From: Candidatus Harpocratesius repetitus
GTDB taxonomy: Archaea; Asgardarchaeota; Lokiarchaeia; Sigyniarchaeales; Promethearchaeaceae
Length of the DNA stretch: 32,000 bases
NCBI GenBank assembly: GCA_021498095.1
Contig: JAIZWK010000001.1
Span: 660,001 to 692,000, forward strand
Direction: 5' to 3'
The translations under genes and the position numbers were made by a program. Below are positions 1 through 8,970 of this stretch, one piece after another (the stretch's first letter is position 1; each line of letters begins with the position of its first letter). A model generated the notes under the pieces. It was not told the DNA's origin, searched no databases, and was given only the letters and a program-made list of their open reading frames with translations.

Positions 1-1
1 G

Positions 2-1198
2 GGGGAATACTATTACATATTGGCTGGGATAATATATTGTAATTGTTTCACCTACTTGAAAATTATGTACGGCTACTCTTGTCGTAGGAATTTCTATTTT
101 TATCAATTTTTTAGGGGGTTCTAAAGATAATTCAACACAATGATTTTTCATTGAATGAGTTTTATTTCCATTTACAAAAGTCTCCAATTGATATGGTGCC
201 AACATTTCAATCCTAAGCCACGCGCCCATGAACTTTACGCGATTTACTTTTCCAACAATACTATTTGTCTTATCTTGACGCCGCTTATGACGTGCTTGAA
301 AGTATTGCGATCTAATCAAAAAAGTAACTTTATCACCGATCTCAAAATTCTTTTCTGTTTTGGCAAATAAAAAGAAACCTTCTTTGGTCTGAATAACAAC
401 ACGCTGTAAGGGTTTACCTTTAAATCCAATCTTTTCCACCATTCGCACTTCTACTACTTTACCATTGAAATAATTCATTTCAGTTGAGAAAAAATTAGCT
501 ACAAACAAATCAACAGGTTCATATAATATCTCTTGAGGTGTTCCAATCTGACGAATTCTTCCTTGATCTAAAACAACAATCCGATCTCCCATCATTGCTT
601 CTTGCATATCATTCGTGACGTGCACGGTTGTCATTTGTAATTCCTTACTTTTTGCAATCTTTCGTACTTCTCGCCGTAAATTCATTCGAAGTCCAGCATC
701 TAGTGCTTTAAATGGTTCATCTAAAATAAGCAATCCTTTTTGTTCTAAAGCCATTATAGCCCGAGCAAGAGCAATTCGCTGCTGCATCCCTCCAGAACAT
801 TCATGAGGAAGGGCAGAGCCGCGACCTTCTAATCTTACTAGTTCTAAAACTGCTTCTCCAATTGCATATGTTTCAGTATGATTGGATTCATGCATATGAC
901 GAGCATAACAAATATTATCTAAAACAGTAAGGTGTGGAAAAAGAGCATAAGATTCAAACATCACTCCACAATGTCTTTCATATGGTGGAAAATGTGTTAC
1001 ATCAACACCATCAAATAGAATTTGACCTTTAGTTGGTTGATAAAGTCCAGATAAAAGACCAACTAAGCTTGTTTTTCCTGCTCCTGTCGGTCCCACAATT
1101 GTTAAATATTCTTGATCTTCAATAATTAAATTAATATCATGTAAGATTTCAACCTTATTTTGAATAAATGATACGTGTCTGAGTTCTACTCTAACCAT
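2..1198 (-). CDS. ABC transporter ATP-binding subunit (second ATPase of the operon), 3'-truncated by the window edge; not in the ORF track
   Basis: Manual translation from ATG at 1196-1198: MVRVELRHVSF..., Walker A GPTGAGKT, Q-loop region GVMFESYALFP, signature CSGGMQQR, Walker B LLILDEP, H-loop region VHVTND, then a TOBE-like C-terminus. No in-frame stop before position 1. Confidence 0.95.
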   Translation of the reverse strand, partial: MVRVELRHVSFIQNKVEILHDINLIIEDQEYLTIVGPTGAGKTSLVGLLSGLYQPTKGQILFDGVDVTHFPPYERHCGVMFESYALFPHLTVLDNICYARHMHESNHTETYAIGEAVLELVRLEGRGSALPHECSGGMQQRIALARAIMALEQKGLLILDEPFKALDAGLRMNLRREVRKIAKSKELQMTTVHVTNDMQEAMMGDRIVVLDQGRIRQIGTPQEILYEPVDLFVANFFSTEMNYFNGKVVEVRMVEKIGFKGKPLQRVVIQTKEGFFLFAKTEKNFEIGDKVTFLIRSQYFQARHKRRQDKTNSIVGKVNRVKFMGAWLRIEMLAPYQLETFVNGNKTHSMKNHCVELSLEPPKKLIKIEIPTTRVAVHNFQVGETITIYYPSQYVIVFP

Positions 1199-1228
1199 TT
1201 TTATCACAGTTTATATAATTGTTTTTTT

Positions 1229-2371
1229 CTATTGTAGATCCATTTCTTTTTGAAGATTTTTTGGATATTTGAATAAACGAACATCATCCATAAATAATCC
1301 TATTTGAATATTGTCCCCTTCACAAAATCGATATTTGAAAGTTTCAGGCTTTGAAATTTCGATTTCATCTCCGTTATCAATTTCAATAATAAAACGTCGT
1401 TCTTTTCCAGTATGGAATTTAGACTTAATTATTGCATCGGTTAAGAAAATGCCTGTCCAATCAGCTTGGGAGTTTTCAAAATCATATCCAAGAGGGAATA
1501 AATAAACATCCTCGGGGCGGAAAGCAACAATTATATTTTCATCTAAAGAAAATCTACTATATGGAGCATTAATTATGAGTTTTGGACCTCCAAGACGGAT
1601 TTTTACGTGATATACATCTGGATGATCTATATGAATAACATAACCTTCTAATATATTGATTCCTCCCAAGAAATTTCCTACAAATAATGATGTAGGATAT
1701 TTGTATAATTCATCTGGTGTGTCTTCTTGTAGAAGATGACCATCTCTCATAATTATAATGCGATCTCCTATTGCCATTGCTTCTTCTTGATTGTGAGTAA
1801 CTTGAATTGCTGTTAAATGTGCATCTTTAATAATATTTCTTAATTCCCATCTAAATTCTGCGCTTATCTTTGGATCCAATGATCCTAAGGGCTCATCCAT
1901 AATTAAAATTCGTGCTCCGCTACATATTGCTCGTGCAATACCTAATCTTTGGAGATCTCCATTTCCCCAGCCGATTGGATATTCGTCAGCACGCTCTAAT
2001 AATCCAACTATCTCTAATGCACGTTCTCCTTTTTCTATTATATAATCTCGCGAATATCCTTGGACATTAAGTGCATATGTACAATTTTCCCAGACAGTAA
2101 GGGGAAAAATATTAAAATTTTGAAAAACAAAAGCAATTCCTCGGGATTGAGGTGGTGAATCGGTAACATCAAGACCGTTAATAAAAACTCGCCCTTGCGT
2201 GGGTTGAATTAAGCCAGATATAGTACGAAGTAGTGTTGTTTTTCCACAACCACTTGGACCTAGTAAAAAAACAAAATCACCATCTCGAATGATCAAATTT
2301 ACATTATTAACTGCTATAACTTTTCCATTATCAAATATTTTGGTAATATGATCTAAGCGAATTTCGGGCAT
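1229..2371 (-). CDS. ABC transporter ATP-binding subunit (MalK/PotA/CysA-like with C-terminal TOBE-like region)
   Basis: Walker A GPSGCGKT, Q-loop FVFQNF, Walker B ILIMDEP, D-loop GSLD, H-loop VTHN. Signature is degenerate (WGNGD). Start overlaps the permease stop (TAATG). Confidence 0.95.
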   Translation of the reverse strand: MPEIRLDHITKIFDNGKVIAVNNVNLIIRDGDFVFLLGPSGCGKTTLLRTISGLIQPTQGRVFINGLDVTDSPPQSRGIAFVFQNFNIFPLTVWENCTYALNVQGYSRDYIIEKGERALEIVGLLERADEYPIGWGNGDLQRLGIARAICSGARILIMDEPLGSLDPKISAEFRWELRNIIKDAHLTAIQVTHNQEEAMAIGDRIIIMRDGHLLQEDTPDELYKYPTSLFVGNFLGGINILEGYVIHIDHPDVYHVKIRLGGPKLIINAPYSRFSLDENIIVAFRPEDVYLFPLGYDFENSQADWTGIFLTDAIIKSKFHTGKERRFIIEIDNGDEIEISKPETFKYRFCEGDNIQIGLFMDDVRLFKYPKNLQKEMDLQ

Positions 2372-4050
2372 TACAGTCCTTCCTCCTTAGTGGGTGAAAA
2401 TAAACGCAGTAGCAACAATAAAATTCCACTTAAAATTATTACTAATACACTGGCAAAAGCAGCAGATGAAAAACTGTTTTCTTCTACCCAATCAACAATT
2501 AACACTGGAATGGTGCGATCTGCCCCCATAACAATCAAGGTGGCACCTGTTTCACCTAAGCTGCGCGTAAATGCAGCAATCATGCCTGCAATTACTCCGT
2601 TTTTTATTGCTGGGAATGTTATTTTTCGAAAAGTTGTCAAACTAACCGCACCTAAGGTCGCACTTGCTTCTTCATGGCCAATATTCACCGTACGAATTGT
2701 TGCTGCAATAGGTCTAACAACATAAGGAAATGTAAAAGTCATATGGACAAAAATAATCATTTCAATACCTGGACTTGCAAGATCTAATCCTGCAGGACCC
2801 CAAAAAAGAAATACTGCAAATCCAAGTGCTGCTGAGGGGATGGTCAAAGGAATATCTAAAATTGTATCTAACACTGCATTCATTTTTCCCCATTTTTCCC
2901 GAGTTAATATAAAAGCAAATGGTATACCAAAGATAACATCAATAATCACTACAAAAAATCCGATTTGAAATGAATTAACTAAACTTGTCCATAGATGTGC
3001 CCATTTATTATCAGCTGCAAATAATTCAAGATGGATTTCATTGATATCAATCTTTGAAATAATATAGAAGGAGGGGATTAAAATGAAAATAATCATTAAA
3101 ATCCCAGCAAATACTTTCAAACCAATTGTAAATGGTTTACGAGAAAATGAATATTCAATATCATAATGAATTTGCCAAAATTTTTTAGTAGAAACATTTC
3201 TCCGAGCTAAAAGCTTGACGATAATAAGTAAAACTAAAGATATTCCAATTAGAATTAGTGAAAGGAAAGAAGCACTGGGAAGTTGTAACTGTTTCCTAAG
3301 ACTAACTACCACTATAGGTGCAGTTTCAATTAAGCCAGAGCAGATCATTGTTGCTCCTGTTTCTCCCAAACTACGAGTAAATGCAAGAATTGCACCTGCA
3401 ATTAAACCTTCTTTTATCAGTGGAAATGATATTGTCCGAAATACGGTAATTTTTGGTGCAGATAATGTCATTGCTGCTTTTTCTAATAAAGGATCAACTT
3501 TTTCAATAGCCAACTTTAGATTTCTGACAATATATGGGAATGTAAATGCGATATGAACGAAAATAACTAAAATTTTCCCAGGATTAACATTAAAAATTCT
3601 CCAAAACAGTAAAACAGAGAATCCTAAAGCACTTGTAGGAACTGCCATTGGTAGATCCACTAATGTATCTAATATTTTCTTTCCGCGAAAATTATTTCTT
3701 GTAAGTAATACTGCTATTGGAAATCCAATTAATATATCCACTCCAACAGCCAAGAATGCAGTTGAAAATGAATTCCATAAAGCAGTTTTCATTATTTGCC
3801 ATTGTAGATTCCCTAATAATTCATCAAAAAATAGTCGAGATCGAATTTCACGAATATTGTCGATTACATTGGATATTATATTAATTATAGGTGCTGCAAT
3901 TATCAAAATGAAGAAAGTAATCACAATAATTTCTAGAATTATACGATAAATTGGTTTAGAAAGCTCCTTTTCAATATTTAGCAATATTGATCTACGCTTG
4001 ATATTCTTATCTGGTAATTCTAATACAGAAGTATATAATTTTGGGGTCAT
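2371..4050 (-). CDS. ABC importer permease, two fused ModB/CysT-like transmembrane domains
   Basis: Internal duplication: DLPMAVP/DIPLTIP, FTFPYIVR/FTFPYVVR, EAA loops (LEKAAMTLSA, HEEASATLGA) and RSLGETGAT twice. About 12 hydrophobic segments. GGAG upstream of the start. Confidence 0.92.
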   Translation of the reverse strand: MTPKLYTSVLELPDKNIKRRSILLNIEKELSKPIYRIILEIIVITFFILIIAAPIINIISNVIDNIREIRSRLFFDELLGNLQWQIMKTALWNSFSTAFLAVGVDILIGFPIAVLLTRNNFRGKKILDTLVDLPMAVPTSALGFSVLLFWRIFNVNPGKILVIFVHIAFTFPYIVRNLKLAIEKVDPLLEKAAMTLSAPKITVFRTISFPLIKEGLIAGAILAFTRSLGETGATMICSGLIETAPIVVVSLRKQLQLPSASFLSLILIGISLVLLIIVKLLARRNVSTKKFWQIHYDIEYSFSRKPFTIGLKVFAGILMIIFILIPSFYIISKIDINEIHLELFAADNKWAHLWTSLVNSFQIGFFVVIIDVIFGIPFAFILTREKWGKMNAVLDTILDIPLTIPSAALGFAVFLFWGPAGLDLASPGIEMIIFVHMTFTFPYVVRPIAATIRTVNIGHEEASATLGAVSLTTFRKITFPAIKNGVIAGMIAAFTRSLGETGATLIVMGADRTIPVLIVDWVEENSFSSAAFASVLVIILSGILLLLLRLFSPTKEEGL

Positions 4051-4068
4051 TTTATTGGCTCCGTAATA

Positions 4069-5271
4069 TTAGGTACGATTTCTAGTCTTTAGCCACAAAT
4101 CGGGAATACGTGCGATAACATTTCCGTCTGTAGGAGGAAAAGTTTCAATTATTTGAGAAGGATCAGGCGTTACTCCATTCATCCAATTAAATGAAGCATT
4201 ATAAATTGATGAAATCTCAGGATCATTTAACCAAGTAGTATTAATTGGACGAAATCCTGCCTCAATGGCTCGTTCAACTAAAGACTTCTGTTGTAAAAAT
4301 CTTAAATACTCTTGAGCAACCATTTTCTGCTCATCGCTGACCCAATCTGCATCTAAAATACAAAATGGATGATCAGAAAACAAAGCCCCTTCTTTAGGAT
4401 ATATTGCAATTAATTTCTGATTCCACTTTTCCATTGCTTTTATAGCATTGTCCTTAATTAAATTCTCATATAAAATGGTAACTTGTAATGCATCAGGACC
4501 TTGAGTTAACATATATGTACCTAAAAATCCCGTTGATTTTCCATATAATACAGCTGCACTTTCGATTTCTGTCATCCATTTTGCCACAGATTCATCATAA
4601 ATCTCTTCTAAGGTAATATTTTCAGGATTCATTCCTAAAAAGGCACTAACCATCATGATTGTTGCCATAAAACCACTATTTGAACTAGTAGGATCAGTGT
4701 GAGCTAAATGAACTAATCCTGGATTGGAAACAATCAAATCGTGCAAATCATTTAATCCATTGAGATGATGTGTTGCATAAAAGTTTTCCCATGTTGCTAT
4801 AACAACGGGAGAATAAATGATTCGGGTGTAATTAGGAACTAAAGGAATATTTTTTTTTATATAGTCCATCCATTTAGCATTTAATAATGGAATCCAAAGA
4901 TTAGACGCAGGGGACCATATAACTGGTTTTATTTCCCCATTTAATAATGCTATAAGGGAATCTCCAGAACCATAGGGTTGAAAATCTAAAGCGATATCTT
5001 TAAGGGAGGGATCTTTTTGTTGAAGGGTTGCCCAATATTGCATGAAAAGTTCAGAAGATTGAGATATCCATGAGGATTTTTCACTGGAATAACTCATTGA
5101 TAAAACAATTACATCTTTTTCATTCTGTTCAAAAACCATCTTTCCCATTATCGCTCCAGCAAAAAAACCAAAAAGAATCCAGATTAGGATAGTAGAAGGA
5201 AGAATTTTTCGATGGAGATAGTTTTTTGTTCCAAAAGATCTATTTTTTTTTGCCATTATGTTCTCATCCAA
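4069..5271 (-). CDS. Membrane-anchored extracellular solute-binding protein (periplasmic-binding fold II, SBP_bac_11-like)
   Basis: N-terminal hydrophobic anchor. Motifs YSSEKSSW, GSGD, IWSPAS, SPVVIA, HTDPTSSNSG, YEN and IYPKEGALFSDHP. First gene of the ABC operon. Start may be the downstream Met (MAKK). Confidence 0.85.
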   Translation of the reverse strand: MDENIMAKKNRSFGTKNYLHRKILPSTILIWILFGFFAGAIMGKMVFEQNEKDVIVLSMSYSSEKSSWISQSSELFMQYWATLQQKDPSLKDIALDFQPYGSGDSLIALLNGEIKPVIWSPASNLWIPLLNAKWMDYIKKNIPLVPNYTRIIYSPVVIATWENFYATHHLNGLNDLHDLIVSNPGLVHLAHTDPTSSNSGFMATIMMVSAFLGMNPENITLEEIYDESVAKWMTEIESAAVLYGKSTGFLGTYMLTQGPDALQVTILYENLIKDNAIKAMEKWNQKLIAIYPKEGALFSDHPFCILDADWVSDEQKMVAQEYLRFLQQKSLVERAIEAGFRPINTTWLNDPEISSIYNASFNWMNGVTPDPSQIIETFPPTDGNVIARIPDLWLKTRNRT

Positions 5272-5571: not shown

Positions 5572-7359
5572 TCATTCAATGACTAAGTCAATTGGACAAA
5601 ATTCTTCCACATCTATAAGCCCAATATCGCTGATTTTAAGAGAAGGAATAACTGGTAAAGCCATAAAACTTAAGGTCATAAAAATATTTTGTTCTGTAAC
5701 ACCCATTGTTTTAGCCGTTTTTTTAATATTTTCATATTTAGAAACAATATCTTGAAGTTTTTCTATGGACATTAGTCCACCAATTTGTAAAGGGAGATAA
5801 GTATATTTTCCTTGATATAAAATTGCCATTCCTCCTCCTTTTTCCTGTAGAAAATTCGCTAAATCCGCCATTTCTTGATCTGATGCACCAACTATTATCA
5901 AATTATGACTATCATGTGCGACAGTTGAAGCAAATGCACCATTAGAAAATCCTAAACCATGAATAAACCCTATAGATTTATTACCTGTATAATGATGTCT
6001 TTCAATTACAGCAATTTTCAATATATCTTGACTAAAATCTCTTTTAATAATTTTTGATGTTCCTTTACTTGAAACAGGGAGATTTTTGATAAGTTTTTTA
6101 GTAACCAAACTAATAGGGGTGATTCCAATTACATTTACTTTTGCTACTTTGTTTTTTCCTGTATAATTAACAATAAAATCTGAGGCAGTTAATTTTTGTT
6201 TTATTTTCATGCTTTTTAGAAGAATTCCATAGTCATACTCAAGATTGAAAGTAGGTGGTTTAAATTTTTGATAAACGATCTTTCCATGATGATACACAGA
6301 ATGGATTTTTAACTGTTCTAAATTATCAAGAACGATAATATTAGCACTAAATCCTGGTTTCAATTGCCCAATAGGGGGACGATTAGTTAGTTTTAAGAAT
6401 TTTTGAATATAATTCCCCGAAGTATAAGTTGCCAGTCGAATTGCTTTAATCATTGCACTTTCAAGGGTGTCTCTTCCGATCTCTCTGAATATTTCAGCAG
6501 AACGACGAATTATTCTATCAATATGTCCGAGATTAAATAAATCACTGGGGGATAAGTCATCAGAACATAAAGAACACTTATCAAGATTAATTTCTTGTTT
6601 TATTAATTCCGGAAGAATTTTATCAAGATCCTTTGTAGCACTACCATATCGAAGAGCGATATTCATACCAATCGCTAGTTTCTCAATTACTTCAGAGGCT
6701 GAAGTAGATTCATGATCATTCATGATTCGATTTTTTCCATCATTATAGCCATTTGAAGTATAAATTTTTAAATCGTCACCAAGAACTCCTGGACAATGAC
6801 CGTCTACAATCTTTCCTGAATTAAATACAAGATCAACCTTTTCACGAGCATCACCGATATTATTAATTATTCCAGGAAAATTCATCATTTCTCCAAGACC
6901 GTAAACTAAATCGTTTGAAATCAGCTCTTTTATATCTTCTATAGATATTGTTGCACCAGAATGTTCCATATGGGTTGCAGGAACACATGAAGGAATTCCT
7001 ATATACATATCTAAAGATACTTTTTGTGCTTGATCAATCCAAATCTCTAAAGCAGATTTTCCAGATATATTTGCTATTTCATGCGGATCGACTAATATTG
7101 TGGTTGTTCCGTGTTGTACTGCTATAGAACAAAATTGTAATGGAGGCATCATACTACTTTCAATATGTATATGACTTTCGATAAAGCCAGGTACTATGTA
7201 TTTTCCTTGTAGATCAATCGTTTGATGAATTGATGGAATATCTGACTTTTTAGGATTTATTGATTTGATAATATCATCTTCTATTAGAATAGAACCTTTT
7301 AAAATTTTCATAGATTCAACGTCAATAATTTTACAGTTTTTTAATAAGATATTTTTCAT
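5572..7359 (-). CDS. ade: Adenine deaminase (AdeC, amidohydrolase superfamily)
   Basis: GFIESHIHIESSM, GTTT..DPHEIAN, SCVPAT, LGEMMN, DGHCPG, DHES, SDD, AVIERH, STVAHDSHN, LSFMALPVIP. Confidence 0.96.
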   Translation of the reverse strand: MKNILLKNCKIIDVESMKILKGSILIEDDIIKSINPKKSDIPSIHQTIDLQGKYIVPGFIESHIHIESSMMPPLQFCSIAVQHGTTTILVDPHEIANISGKSALEIWIDQAQKVSLDMYIGIPSCVPATHMEHSGATISIEDIKELISNDLVYGLGEMMNFPGIINNIGDAREKVDLVFNSGKIVDGHCPGVLGDDLKIYTSNGYNDGKNRIMNDHESTSASEVIEKLAIGMNIALRYGSATKDLDKILPELIKQEINLDKCSLCSDDLSPSDLFNLGHIDRIIRRSAEIFREIGRDTLESAMIKAIRLATYTSGNYIQKFLKLTNRPPIGQLKPGFSANIIVLDNLEQLKIHSVYHHGKIVYQKFKPPTFNLEYDYGILLKSMKIKQKLTASDFIVNYTGKNKVAKVNVIGITPISLVTKKLIKNLPVSSKGTSKIIKRDFSQDILKIAVIERHHYTGNKSIGFIHGLGFSNGAFASTVAHDSHNLIIVGASDQEMADLANFLQEKGGGMAILYQGKYTYLPLQIGGLMSIEKLQDIVSKYENIKKTAKTMGVTEQNIFMTLSFMALPVIPSLKISDIGLIDVEEFCPIDLVIE

Positions 7360-7365
7360 GATAAT

Positions 7366-8079
7366 TCACTTCCCAAGATAATATTTTTCATTTACAGCGA
7401 TAATAAAAGGTAGGTAACGAAAATCATCTCCTGAGTCTATTCCATATCCTGCAACCCAGACATCAGGGATTGTAAATCCAATGTAGTCAATTTTAAGATT
7501 TAATCTTAAATTTTGGACTTCAGTTGTTGGGTTTTCCAAATTTTTATATAAAAGAGTACAAATTTTCACAGATGCGACTTTTTTCTTTCCAAGTAAAAAT
7601 CTTTGCAATTTAGATAAGGTAAAACCTTGATCGATAATATCCTCAATGATAATTATCTGTTCTCCCGAGAGATCTCCACAGTCCAATTGGATGTCTACAT
7701 CTCGAATTGTTTCGCCCTCTTTTTTAATCTCTTTCCGATAGGTTGATAATTTCATGGTAAAAAATTGAATATCTTGACCGCTTTGATGATATATTTCCCG
7801 ACCCAAGTCTGCAGCGAACATAAAAGCTCCAGTAAGAACAATTAAAAAATTATATTTTTTATTCTCCTTATTGTCTTCAATAATTTCAACAGCTAATTTT
7901 CGAATACGATTTTTAATTACATCTGCAGGAATTAGTAAATTTTTGCATCGTTCATCGTGATTTAATCTGTTGGAGAAAAATTGTTCAAAGGTTTTGGGAT
8001 TTCGATGATCTACAACGCCATCTAAAGGAACCTCAATAGTTTTTTCATAGTCTGGTAATGTTAATCTTTTTGGTGGCAT
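7366..8079 (-). CDS. hpt: Hypoxanthine-guanine phosphoribosyltransferase with N-terminal extension
   Basis: VLTGAFMFAADL, PRPP-binding IIIEDIIDQGFTL, ICTLL, IGFTIPDVWVAGYGID. Confidence 0.93.
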   Translation of the reverse strand: MPPKRLTLPDYEKTIEVPLDGVVDHRNPKTFEQFFSNRLNHDERCKNLLIPADVIKNRIRKLAVEIIEDNKENKKYNFLIVLTGAFMFAADLGREIYHQSGQDIQFFTMKLSTYRKEIKKEGETIRDVDIQLDCGDLSGEQIIIIEDIIDQGFTLSKLQRFLLGKKKVASVKICTLLYKNLENPTTEVQNLRLNLKIDYIGFTIPDVWVAGYGIDSGDDFRYLPFIIAVNEKYYLGK

Positions 8080-8106
8080 AGCTGCTTTTCATTCCTTATT
8101 TTTTAA

Positions 8107-8970
8107 TTATAAAATTGCACCGTCTCTAGCATGAGCGCATTCACAATGACGTTCTTCTGGAATCTGAGGAAGTGCAAGTTCAATTAATTTACGAAGGTTT
8201 TCAGCGTTCTTTTCCATTGTTTCTAATATTTCTTCGACGCTAACCGCAAGAGGTTTGATCTTTTGGCCACATTTTGGACAAGTATCTCCGTACATAACAA
8301 TTCCACAATTGGGACATTCACATGCCCAAACATCCAAATCAGTAACTGTTGCAATTGATGAATAGCACATATTTAACTCTGCAGCTAATACTACTTCAGG
8401 ATAGATTGTCATTCCTACAACATCACCCCCCCATTTTGCATACATTCGAGATTCTGCACGGGTTGAAAATCGAGGGCCGTTAATACATACATAAGTGCCA
8501 CCATTTTGAATGTCTAAGCCTAATTCTTTTCCTGCTTTGAAAAATATATCATTCATTTCAGGACAGAAAGGATCTGCTTGCCCAATATGACATACCTCCC
8601 CACCATCGTAAAAAGTATCTTTTCGACCTTTTGTGCGATCAATATATTGATCAATGATCACAAATACTCCTTTATCTGTTTTTGCTGTTAGTCCCCCTAC
8701 AGCACATGGAGAGAAGACTCTTTTTACTCCAAGTTCCTTCATTGCCCAAATATTGGCGCGATAGTTTAATTGGTGGGGTGGAATCTGATGATTTGGTCCA
8801 TGTCGAGATAAAAATGCCACTTTTTTTCCATTAAAGGTGCCTATTGTAATTAAATCTGAAGGTGCACCATAAGGAGTATAAATTTTATATTTTTTTGCGT
8901 TTTCTAGATGAATATCCGCTCCAGTTCCACCAATTATTCCAATTTCGATGTCATGCTTATTATAACTCAT
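8107..8970 (-). CDS. mtnP: S-methyl-5'-thioadenosine / purine nucleoside phosphorylase (MTAP family) with a Zn-ribbon insertion
   Basis: IGIIGGTG, TPYGAPSD, LSRHG, NYRANIWA, CAVG, DQYIDRT, GPRFSTRAES, VVGMT..PE, TVTDLDVW. Confidence 0.95.
   Translation of the reverse strand: MSYNKHDIEIGIIGGTGADIHLENAKKYKIYTPYGAPSDLITIGTFNGKKVAFLSRHGPNHQIPPHQLNYRANIWAMKELGVKRVFSPCAVGGLTAKTDKGVFVIIDQYIDRTKGRKDTFYDGGEVCHIGQADPFCPEMNDIFFKAGKELGLDIQNGGTYVCINGPRFSTRAESRMYAKWGGDVVGMTIYPEVVLAAELNMCYSSIATVTDLDVWACECPNCGIVMYGDTCPKCGQKIKPLAVSVEEILETMEKNAENLRKLIELALPQIPEERHCECAHARDGAIL

Follow-up and report, generated by a model that had tools for sequence, protein, structure and literature searches.

The 32,000-nucleotide window analysed here (C1:660001-692000, the whole stretch under study, from the Asgard archaeon Candidatus Harpocratesius repetitus) begins with a gene cassette that is best read as a binding-protein-dependent importer of the ATP-binding cassette (ABC) type, equipped with two different ATPases that we call A1 and A2. 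The distribution of catalytic motifs between the two argues, with high probability, for an obligate A1/A2 heterodimer in which one ATP site would be consensus and the other degenerate, acting as the motor of an importer whose substrate is probably an oxyanion. How many ATP molecules a type I importer consumes per cycle, and whether both of its sites are needed, are long-standing questions that have been approached mostly through engineered single-site mutants of the homodimeric HisP and MalK. The cassette would be a natural type I importer with one site of each kind, conserved across Asgard archaea. The design is already known in exporters: what appears to be new here is a naturally degenerate ATP site, as predicted from the motifs, in a type I importer with two separate ATPases.

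The source genome is a single contig of 4.36 Mb (~30% GC, 93.6% complete by marker genes), and open reading frame calls show four closely packed minus-strand genes filling window positions 1-5271. The first in reading direction (4069..5271, 400 aa) encodes a membrane-anchored substrate-binding protein with a weak match to SBP_bac_11 (37.5 bits). It is followed by a fused double permease (2371..4050, 559 aa) consisting of two non-identical BPD_transp_1 halves (PF00528, 94.9 bits, in two stretches), each with an EAA-type coupling loop (3394-3483 and 2584-2673); among NCBIfam models the halves are closest to CysT/W, ModB and WtpB. The a1-type ATPase A1 (1229..2371, 380 aa; Pfam ABC_tran, 94.2 bits, plus a weak TOBE_2) and the a2-type ATPase A2 (2..1198; ABC_tran, 97.9 bits) come next. 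They are separate genes divided by a 30-nt spacer, not a single polypeptide with two nucleotide-binding domains (NBDs), and their products are 37% identical. A2 runs past the start of the window: the whole gene (L001:1457-2698) encodes 413 aa from an ATG at window position 1198, of which the 14 C-terminal residues lie outside the window. Just beyond, after A2, is a gene of the PhoU_div/DUF47 family (L001:635-1333, 232 aa; PF01865, 86.7 bits; PhoU, 27.8 bits). Both ATPases are closest in NCBIfam to PotA, PhnT2, CysA and UgpC, every score falling far under the equivalog cut-off. The BPD_transp_1 permease with EAA loops, the binding protein encoded in the operon and the ATPases of MalK/CysA/PotA type are all traits of type I importers, and on our best reading the five genes (binding protein, fused permease, A1, A2 and PhoU_div) would constitute one such system.

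Motif states were read by translating the given coordinates and then from ungapped HMMER alignments to solved importer ATPases. In A2 the Walker A motif GPTGAGKT (1070..1093) is intact, as are the SGG core of the signature CSGGM (785..799) and the catalytic Glu of the Walker B and D-loop segment LILDEPFKALD (698..730). Two other catalytic positions depart from consensus: the Q-loop Gln is replaced by Glu (E85, MFES, 953..955) and the H-switch His by Asn (N199, VTND, 611..613). Aligned with the MalK-like 2it1 and with E. coli PotA (8zx1), the Glu occupies the position of the Q-loop Gln and the Asn that of the His in VTHDQ. The D-loop is also non-standard, reading KALD rather than the usual SALD, with K167 aligned to the D-loop Ser. 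Because Walker A is intact, nucleotide binding by A2 is probably retained.

A1 presents the complementary picture. Its Walker A (GPSGCGKT, 2237..2260), Q-loop Gln (Q84, 2120..2122), Walker B and D-loop (LIMDEPLGSLD, 1874..1906) and H-switch His (H193, 1793..1795) are all in place, and the signature is degenerate: WGNGD (1955..1969) aligns with the LSGGQ of 1v43, so that Ser has become Gly and the first Gly has become Asn. These assignments bear out the original prediction, made from the letters of the DNA, in every motif that it named for either ATPase; its inventory of A2 omitted the end of the gene beyond the window and the D-loop Lys.

The substitutions are not peculiar to this genome. Among the 120 best homologues of A2 (39-98% identity) the Q-loop Glu and H-switch Asn occur in 120/120, within FE[SN]YA and VTN[DE], together with K-A-L-D and an SGGM signature throughout; carriers that bear names belong to Promethearchaeota/Lokiarchaeota, Thor-, Hermod- and Odinarchaeota. 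The 120 best homologues of A1 (52-100% identity) all have a degenerate signature (120/120), WGNGD in near relatives and FGNPG in the wider set, and all of them retain Q and H. At 30 Asgard loci a degenerate-signature A1-type gene stands directly upstream of an E/N A2-type gene on the same strand wherever the flank reaches that far. Thus the co-occurrence of the two sets of substitutions, proposed at the outset as a check on the idea, holds across homologous Asgard operons. Since Glu and Asn are strictly invariant, selection evidently acts on these residues; judged from the aligned sequences, the motif pattern goes well beyond anything expected by chance. When 1.84 billion representative proteins were searched exhaustively, only about seven clusters (at 50% identity) of the strict E/N type came up, together with additional clusters in which the Q-loop is Glu and the His is retained. 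Every E/N or Q-loop-E cluster that bears an organism name comes from Asgard archaea.

To place these proteins in their operons we assembled cassettes from 40 Asgard regions and from a scan of all GTDB species genomes with a profile of the binding protein, classing open reading frames by purpose-built hidden Markov models. A cassette was defined by a binding protein and/or a fused permease together with exactly one a1-type and one a2-type ATPase; 98 were recovered, of which 80 remained after removal of duplicates. The sequences of the family are related, and counts across cassettes or genome pairs are therefore descriptive and overstate independence. Two composite sites can be drawn for each cassette. 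The site that pairs the Walker motifs, Q-loop and H-switch of a2 with the signature of a1 carries at least one defect in 78/80 cassettes; the reciprocal site, pairing a1 Walker, Q and H with the a2 signature, carries defects in 0/80. Every defect in these cassettes thus falls in one composite site, as had been claimed for the three defects of A1 and A2.

The tallies for individual motifs are equally one-sided. In a1 the Q-loop is Gln in 79/79 scorable cases and the H-switch is His in 80/80; its signature is degenerate in 76, canonical-like in three and unscorable in one. In a2 the signature is xSGGx in 80/80. The Q-loop of a2 (n=80) is E in 60, A in 2 and Q in 18, and the H-switch (n=80) is N in 56, Q in 4 and H in 20. 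Walker B is DEP in 77, DDP in 2 and DQP in one; the D-loop position is K in 51/80; and Walker A is exactly GPTGAGKT in 66/80. In one more metagenomic relative the Walker A Lys is lost (GPSGSGPS) together with a DQP Walker B. As a side observation, one a1-type gene (L050:9054-10013) is truncated or broken between Walker A and Walker B, leaving its Q-loop and signature unalignable.

The cassette is not confined to Asgard archaea. A strictly Asgard-specific family was ruled out when the binding-protein search found the cassette in metagenome-assembled genomes of Thermoproteota (Thermoprotei) and of Bathyarchaeia, in addition to the Asgard classes. In these hosts the gene order differs (a2, a1, PhoU_div, binding protein, permease). 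A set of Thermoprotei/Thermoproteales assemblies with this order (L137, L139-L142, L145, L147-L151, L154) has as its sole defect an a1 signature of the form LSRGx, with Arg for the first Gly; the partner has both Q and H.

Arranged by the extent of their departures, the cassettes form a graded series. It starts with fully canonical pairs, which are rare, and proceeds to an altered signature alone (LSRGx), in Thermoproteota and one Asgard family; to LSAPx with Q replaced by E; to the same with H replaced by Q or N in addition; and, at the far end, in Lokiarchaeia-type genomes, to FGNPG or WGNGD with E, N and the D-loop K. Degenerate a1 signatures across lineages comprise LSRGx, LSAPx, LNTPE, FGNPG and WGNGD, and the lineages differ in how that one site is hit: His replaced by Asn or Gln in the H-switch, Gln by Glu or Ala in the Q-loop, Walker B changed to DQP or DDP, or Walker A to GPSGSGPS. 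Together with the Asgard cassettes, the milder Thermoproteota relatives, where the signature alone is degenerate, provide a graded natural series with which the role of a degenerate site in an importer could be probed.

A maximum-likelihood tree of the NBDs, with canonical ATPases included, shows for the E-type lineage the same branching order of genome families in the a1 subtree as in the a2 subtree. In this tree a1 and a2 are clustered, with canonical single ATPases nested among them; because of this nesting, and because deep nodes are weak, we make no claim as to the root or the order of duplication. The two partners also differ in rate. In the lineage with E or A in the Q-loop, identity is higher for the a1 NBD than for the a2 NBD in 1809/1891 genome pairs (71.1 vs 65.1%); in the lineage that keeps Q and H in a2, a1 is the more conserved in 57/153 pairs, that is, there is no such difference.

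From the coupling of these motif states we infer that A1 and A2 work as a heterodimer, because a homodimer of A1 would contain two bad signatures and a homodimer of A2 two E/N sites; only the mixed pair yields a consensus site. Structure prediction of A1 and A2 with two ATP, which the original prediction had suggested, passed with an ipSAE (an interface confidence score) of 0.74 (0.72-0.78 over three runs) against 0.00 for the best control, a result that may mirror likeness to MalK and PotA. The mark applied to this score is reached by 58/80 solved complexes and 2/110 mismatched pairs. The runs share at least 85% of contacts, and the per-residue confidence of the partner (pLDDT) is at least 81. 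In the predicted interface each Walker A faces the opposite D-loop, the H-switch regions take part, and there are extensive contacts between the C-terminal domains.

A head-to-tail dimer of this kind would work as follows. The Walker A and B motifs, Q84 and H193 of A1 would lie opposite the CSGGM of A2 to give the consensus, hydrolysing site; the Walker A and B motifs, Glu and Asn of A2 would lie opposite the WGNGD of A1 to give the degenerate site. Because Walker A and the A-loop aromatic residue are retained, the degenerate site most likely still binds ATP; it would have neither the Q-loop Gln nor the H-switch His, nor the Ser and Gly with which a signature clamps the γ-phosphate, and would most likely hydrolyse slowly or not at all, as in exporters of the TM287/288 type. 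The pump might then run on approximately one ATP per cycle, as has been proposed for heterodimeric exporters, with the nucleotide kept in the degenerate site helping to hold the dimer or to regulate it. The permease, through its two non-identical halves, would set the docking position of each ATPase, and the D-loop Lys of A2, which would be placed next to the consensus site, may serve cross-talk between the sites.

Several considerations weigh against so simple a division of labour. The catalytic Walker B Glu is kept in A2 and in 77/80 cassettes, so that the usual mark of a degenerate site is absent: loss of this residue is given as a hallmark in one account (PMC7544095). Since A2 retains the residue, the loss of hydrolysis at its site is presumed. 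The strict invariance of Glu and Asn could also suit a chemistry that is altered but active. Kinship inflates the counts, and further decay is to be expected once one site is dead. The pass in complex prediction may stem from resemblance to solved MalK and PotA dimers; because those dimers are similar, and because our own alignments and riding ligands were used, it speaks for likeness and is not proof of binding.

The chief rival is accordingly that both sites are catalytic: the Q-loop Glu, the H-switch Asn and the variant signature would be co-adapted parts of an altered chemistry, and the importer would spend two ATP per cycle like MalK2. Caution on this point comes mainly from two facts: Walker B keeps its Glu, and E and N are strictly invariant. 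A2 does keep its Walker A as well as the Glu (DEP in 77/80 cassettes), and the absence of drift at E and N indicates purifying selection on those residues. Yet it is in exactly this site that relatives of the cassette lack the Lys of Walker A or, with DQP or DDP, the catalytic Glu itself, and A2 outpaces A1 in evolution only in the lineage with E or A in the Q-loop. Both the Ser and the first Gly of the signature, which form the γ-phosphate clamp, are replaced, and mutants of the H-switch His, such as HlyB H662A, are reportedly essentially inactive. We regard two active sites as quite unlikely. A more radical alternative dispenses with the heterodimer: A1 and A2 would form separate homodimers used in turn, or A2 would be a regulatory pseudo-ATPase off the permease. 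Its appeal is that most importers of the MalK/CysA/PotA type run on homodimers, as their solved structures attest, and nothing more direct speaks for it. Neither homodimer would possess any consensus site, however; one a1-type and one a2-type gene are present in 80/80 cassettes, beside a fused permease with non-identical halves; and the branching orders of the a1 and a2 trees are congruent. This alternative strikes us as highly improbable, and the asymmetric A1/A2 heterodimer remains the reading that we prefer.

Pairs of one consensus and one degenerate site are frequent in exporters (PMC3971661, PMC7756269), and the reviews agree with the original prediction that the design is familiar from heterodimeric members of that group. 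Like TM287/288, TAP1/2, BmrCD and CFTR, the A1/A2 system has two non-identical NBDs with asymmetric D-loops, and its defects, which affect the H-switch and Q-loop in one subunit and the signature in its partner, are collected in a single composite site while the other is consensus. The exporters differ in that their transmembrane fold is of type IV, they work without a binding protein and they have usually lost the Walker B Glu; the A1/A2 system has instead a BPD_transp_1 permease, a binding protein, MalK/PotA-type NBDs with C-terminal domains, and a Walker B Glu that is kept. The likeness is one of mechanism; beyond the ABC fold the two groups share no specific ancestry.

The further statement that such a design is unusual in binding-protein-dependent importers is right as worded but is not absolute: sequence analysis indicates one degenerate site in RbsA and NupO, the fused-NBD importer ATPases of B. 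subtilis (PMC11466899). Although RbsACB and NupNOPQ are likewise binding-protein-dependent importers with one such site, they are of the CUT2 (type II-like) class, have their NBDs fused in a single polypeptide and lack the Walker A Lys. In the present case the ATPases are separate subunits of MalK/PotA type, the permease is fused and Walker A is intact. The nearest solved relatives (E 1e-43 to 1e-60) are MalK2 (1q12, 2r6g), PotA2 (8y5f, 8zx1), CysA (1z47) and a ModC/WtpC-type protein (3d31). These share with A1 and A2 an NBD followed by a C-terminal beta-domain, and the predicted A1/A2 interface takes in the C-terminal domains as in MalK; they differ in being homodimers with two identical consensus sites, whereas here there are paralogues with complementary defects. 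In the searchable full-text literature, most subscription journals being outside reach, we came upon no account of a two-subunit importer of MalK/PotA type with a degenerate site, nor any of the cassette itself or of Asgard PhoU-linked ABC systems.

What the importer carries can be approached through its binding protein, permease and gene neighbourhood. The AlphaFold2 (AF2) model of the binding protein (pLDDT 92.7) has a periplasmic-binding-protein fold, and in Foldseek the sulfate-binding proteins 5um2 and 1sbp come out on top (TM-score 0.62-0.65 by target), with AfuA and PotF/D next. At the level of sequence the family is almost wholly Asgard; its profile gives marginal matches only among PDB sequences (1sbp, E 0.1), and the protein has no match in NCBIfam. 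Relatives are often named 'Ca-activated chloride channel family protein' by JGI, a name that looks carried over from vWA-fusion proteins, because the fold is that of a periplasmic binding protein. The permease scores 218 bits against a cut-off of 240 for TIGR00969, and 196.6 against 182.6 for modB, a score summed over two halves; the ATPases reach 193-208 bits against the WtpC cut-off of 440. These comparisons point to a tetrahedral oxyanion as the probable substrate.

Phosphate, or a phosphate-related anion, is a natural candidate, for which we put the chances at slightly below even. PhoU_div adjoins the cassette in 66/80 cases, and a MazE-PhoU gene is frequently nearby. The arrangement recalls PstSCAB-PhoU, which is likewise an ABC importer genetically linked to a PhoU-family protein; it differs in that the binding protein of the cassette is not PBP_like_2 and the partner is PhoU_div (DUF47) and not classical PhoU. 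The source genome has one Pit (PHO4) gene, at C1:1899365-1900282. At its 93.6% marker completeness no PBP_like_2 PstS was found in it, nor any PstB above the NCBIfam cut-off (the two ATPases of the cassette reach 129.5 and 97.5 bits against 343), nor any PstC above cut-off, the best matches being the two halves of the cassette permease (43 and 37 bits against 196). PstB above cut-off is also absent from the genome of Promethearchaeum syntrophicum MK-D1. In all, a cassette without PstB was seen in the source genome, MK-D1 and one other genome.

Two results count against phosphate, or against so definite a view of the substrate: the Foldseek TM-scores are just 0.50-0.65, and PstB above cut-off is present in three of the five other cassette-bearing genomes checked. 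Canonical Pst and the cassette thus coexist in some Asgard genomes, and because PstB co-occurs with it in 3/5, a simple replacement of Pst by the cassette is unlikely, in a sample that is small and composed of related genomes. PstB above cut-off was found in 4/5 genomes where the A2 query gave no match. The cassette can nonetheless be regarded as a candidate oxyanion, possibly phosphate, uptake system of cultured Asgard archaea without Pst. A bolder version would make the degenerate site a selected nucleotide-sensing or latch site, so that Glu/Asn, the D-loop Lys and PhoU_div form a module gating an oxyanion (phosphate) importer by the ATP or phosphate status of the cytoplasm, the importer itself being the main high-affinity phosphate uptake route in Pst-less Asgard archaea including MK-D1; taken as a whole, this is speculative and rather unlikely.

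Other genes of this kind occur around the cassette. Some Asgard loci carry, no more than a few kb from it, a short gene for a PstB-like ATPase and, after that, a PhoU-like gene (L040:341-4823, L046:13539-17055 and L056:2063-3497), with a permease-like open reading frame alongside in L040 and L046; the PstB-like gene of L056 was confirmed as PstB above cut-off. These pairs suggest a phosphate-related gene neighbourhood. In one Asgard family many genomes have two PhoU_div genes on one side of the cassette, the second ~2-3 kb beyond the first (L041, L042, L045-L047, L049, L051, L052, L055, L056).

Within the window itself, a purine-salvage trio (5572-8970) lies directly upstream of the cassette on the same strand, ~300 nt from the binding-protein gene. 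It comprises, all on the minus strand, an adenine deaminase (5572-7359), a phosphoribosyltransferase (7366-8079) and a homologue of MTAP / purine nucleoside phosphorylase (8107-8970; PNP_UDP_1, 144 bits). Toward its C-terminal part the last of these carries an inserted CxxC-x9-CxxC motif (CECPNCG...CPKCG) that resembles a small zinc-ribbon insertion.

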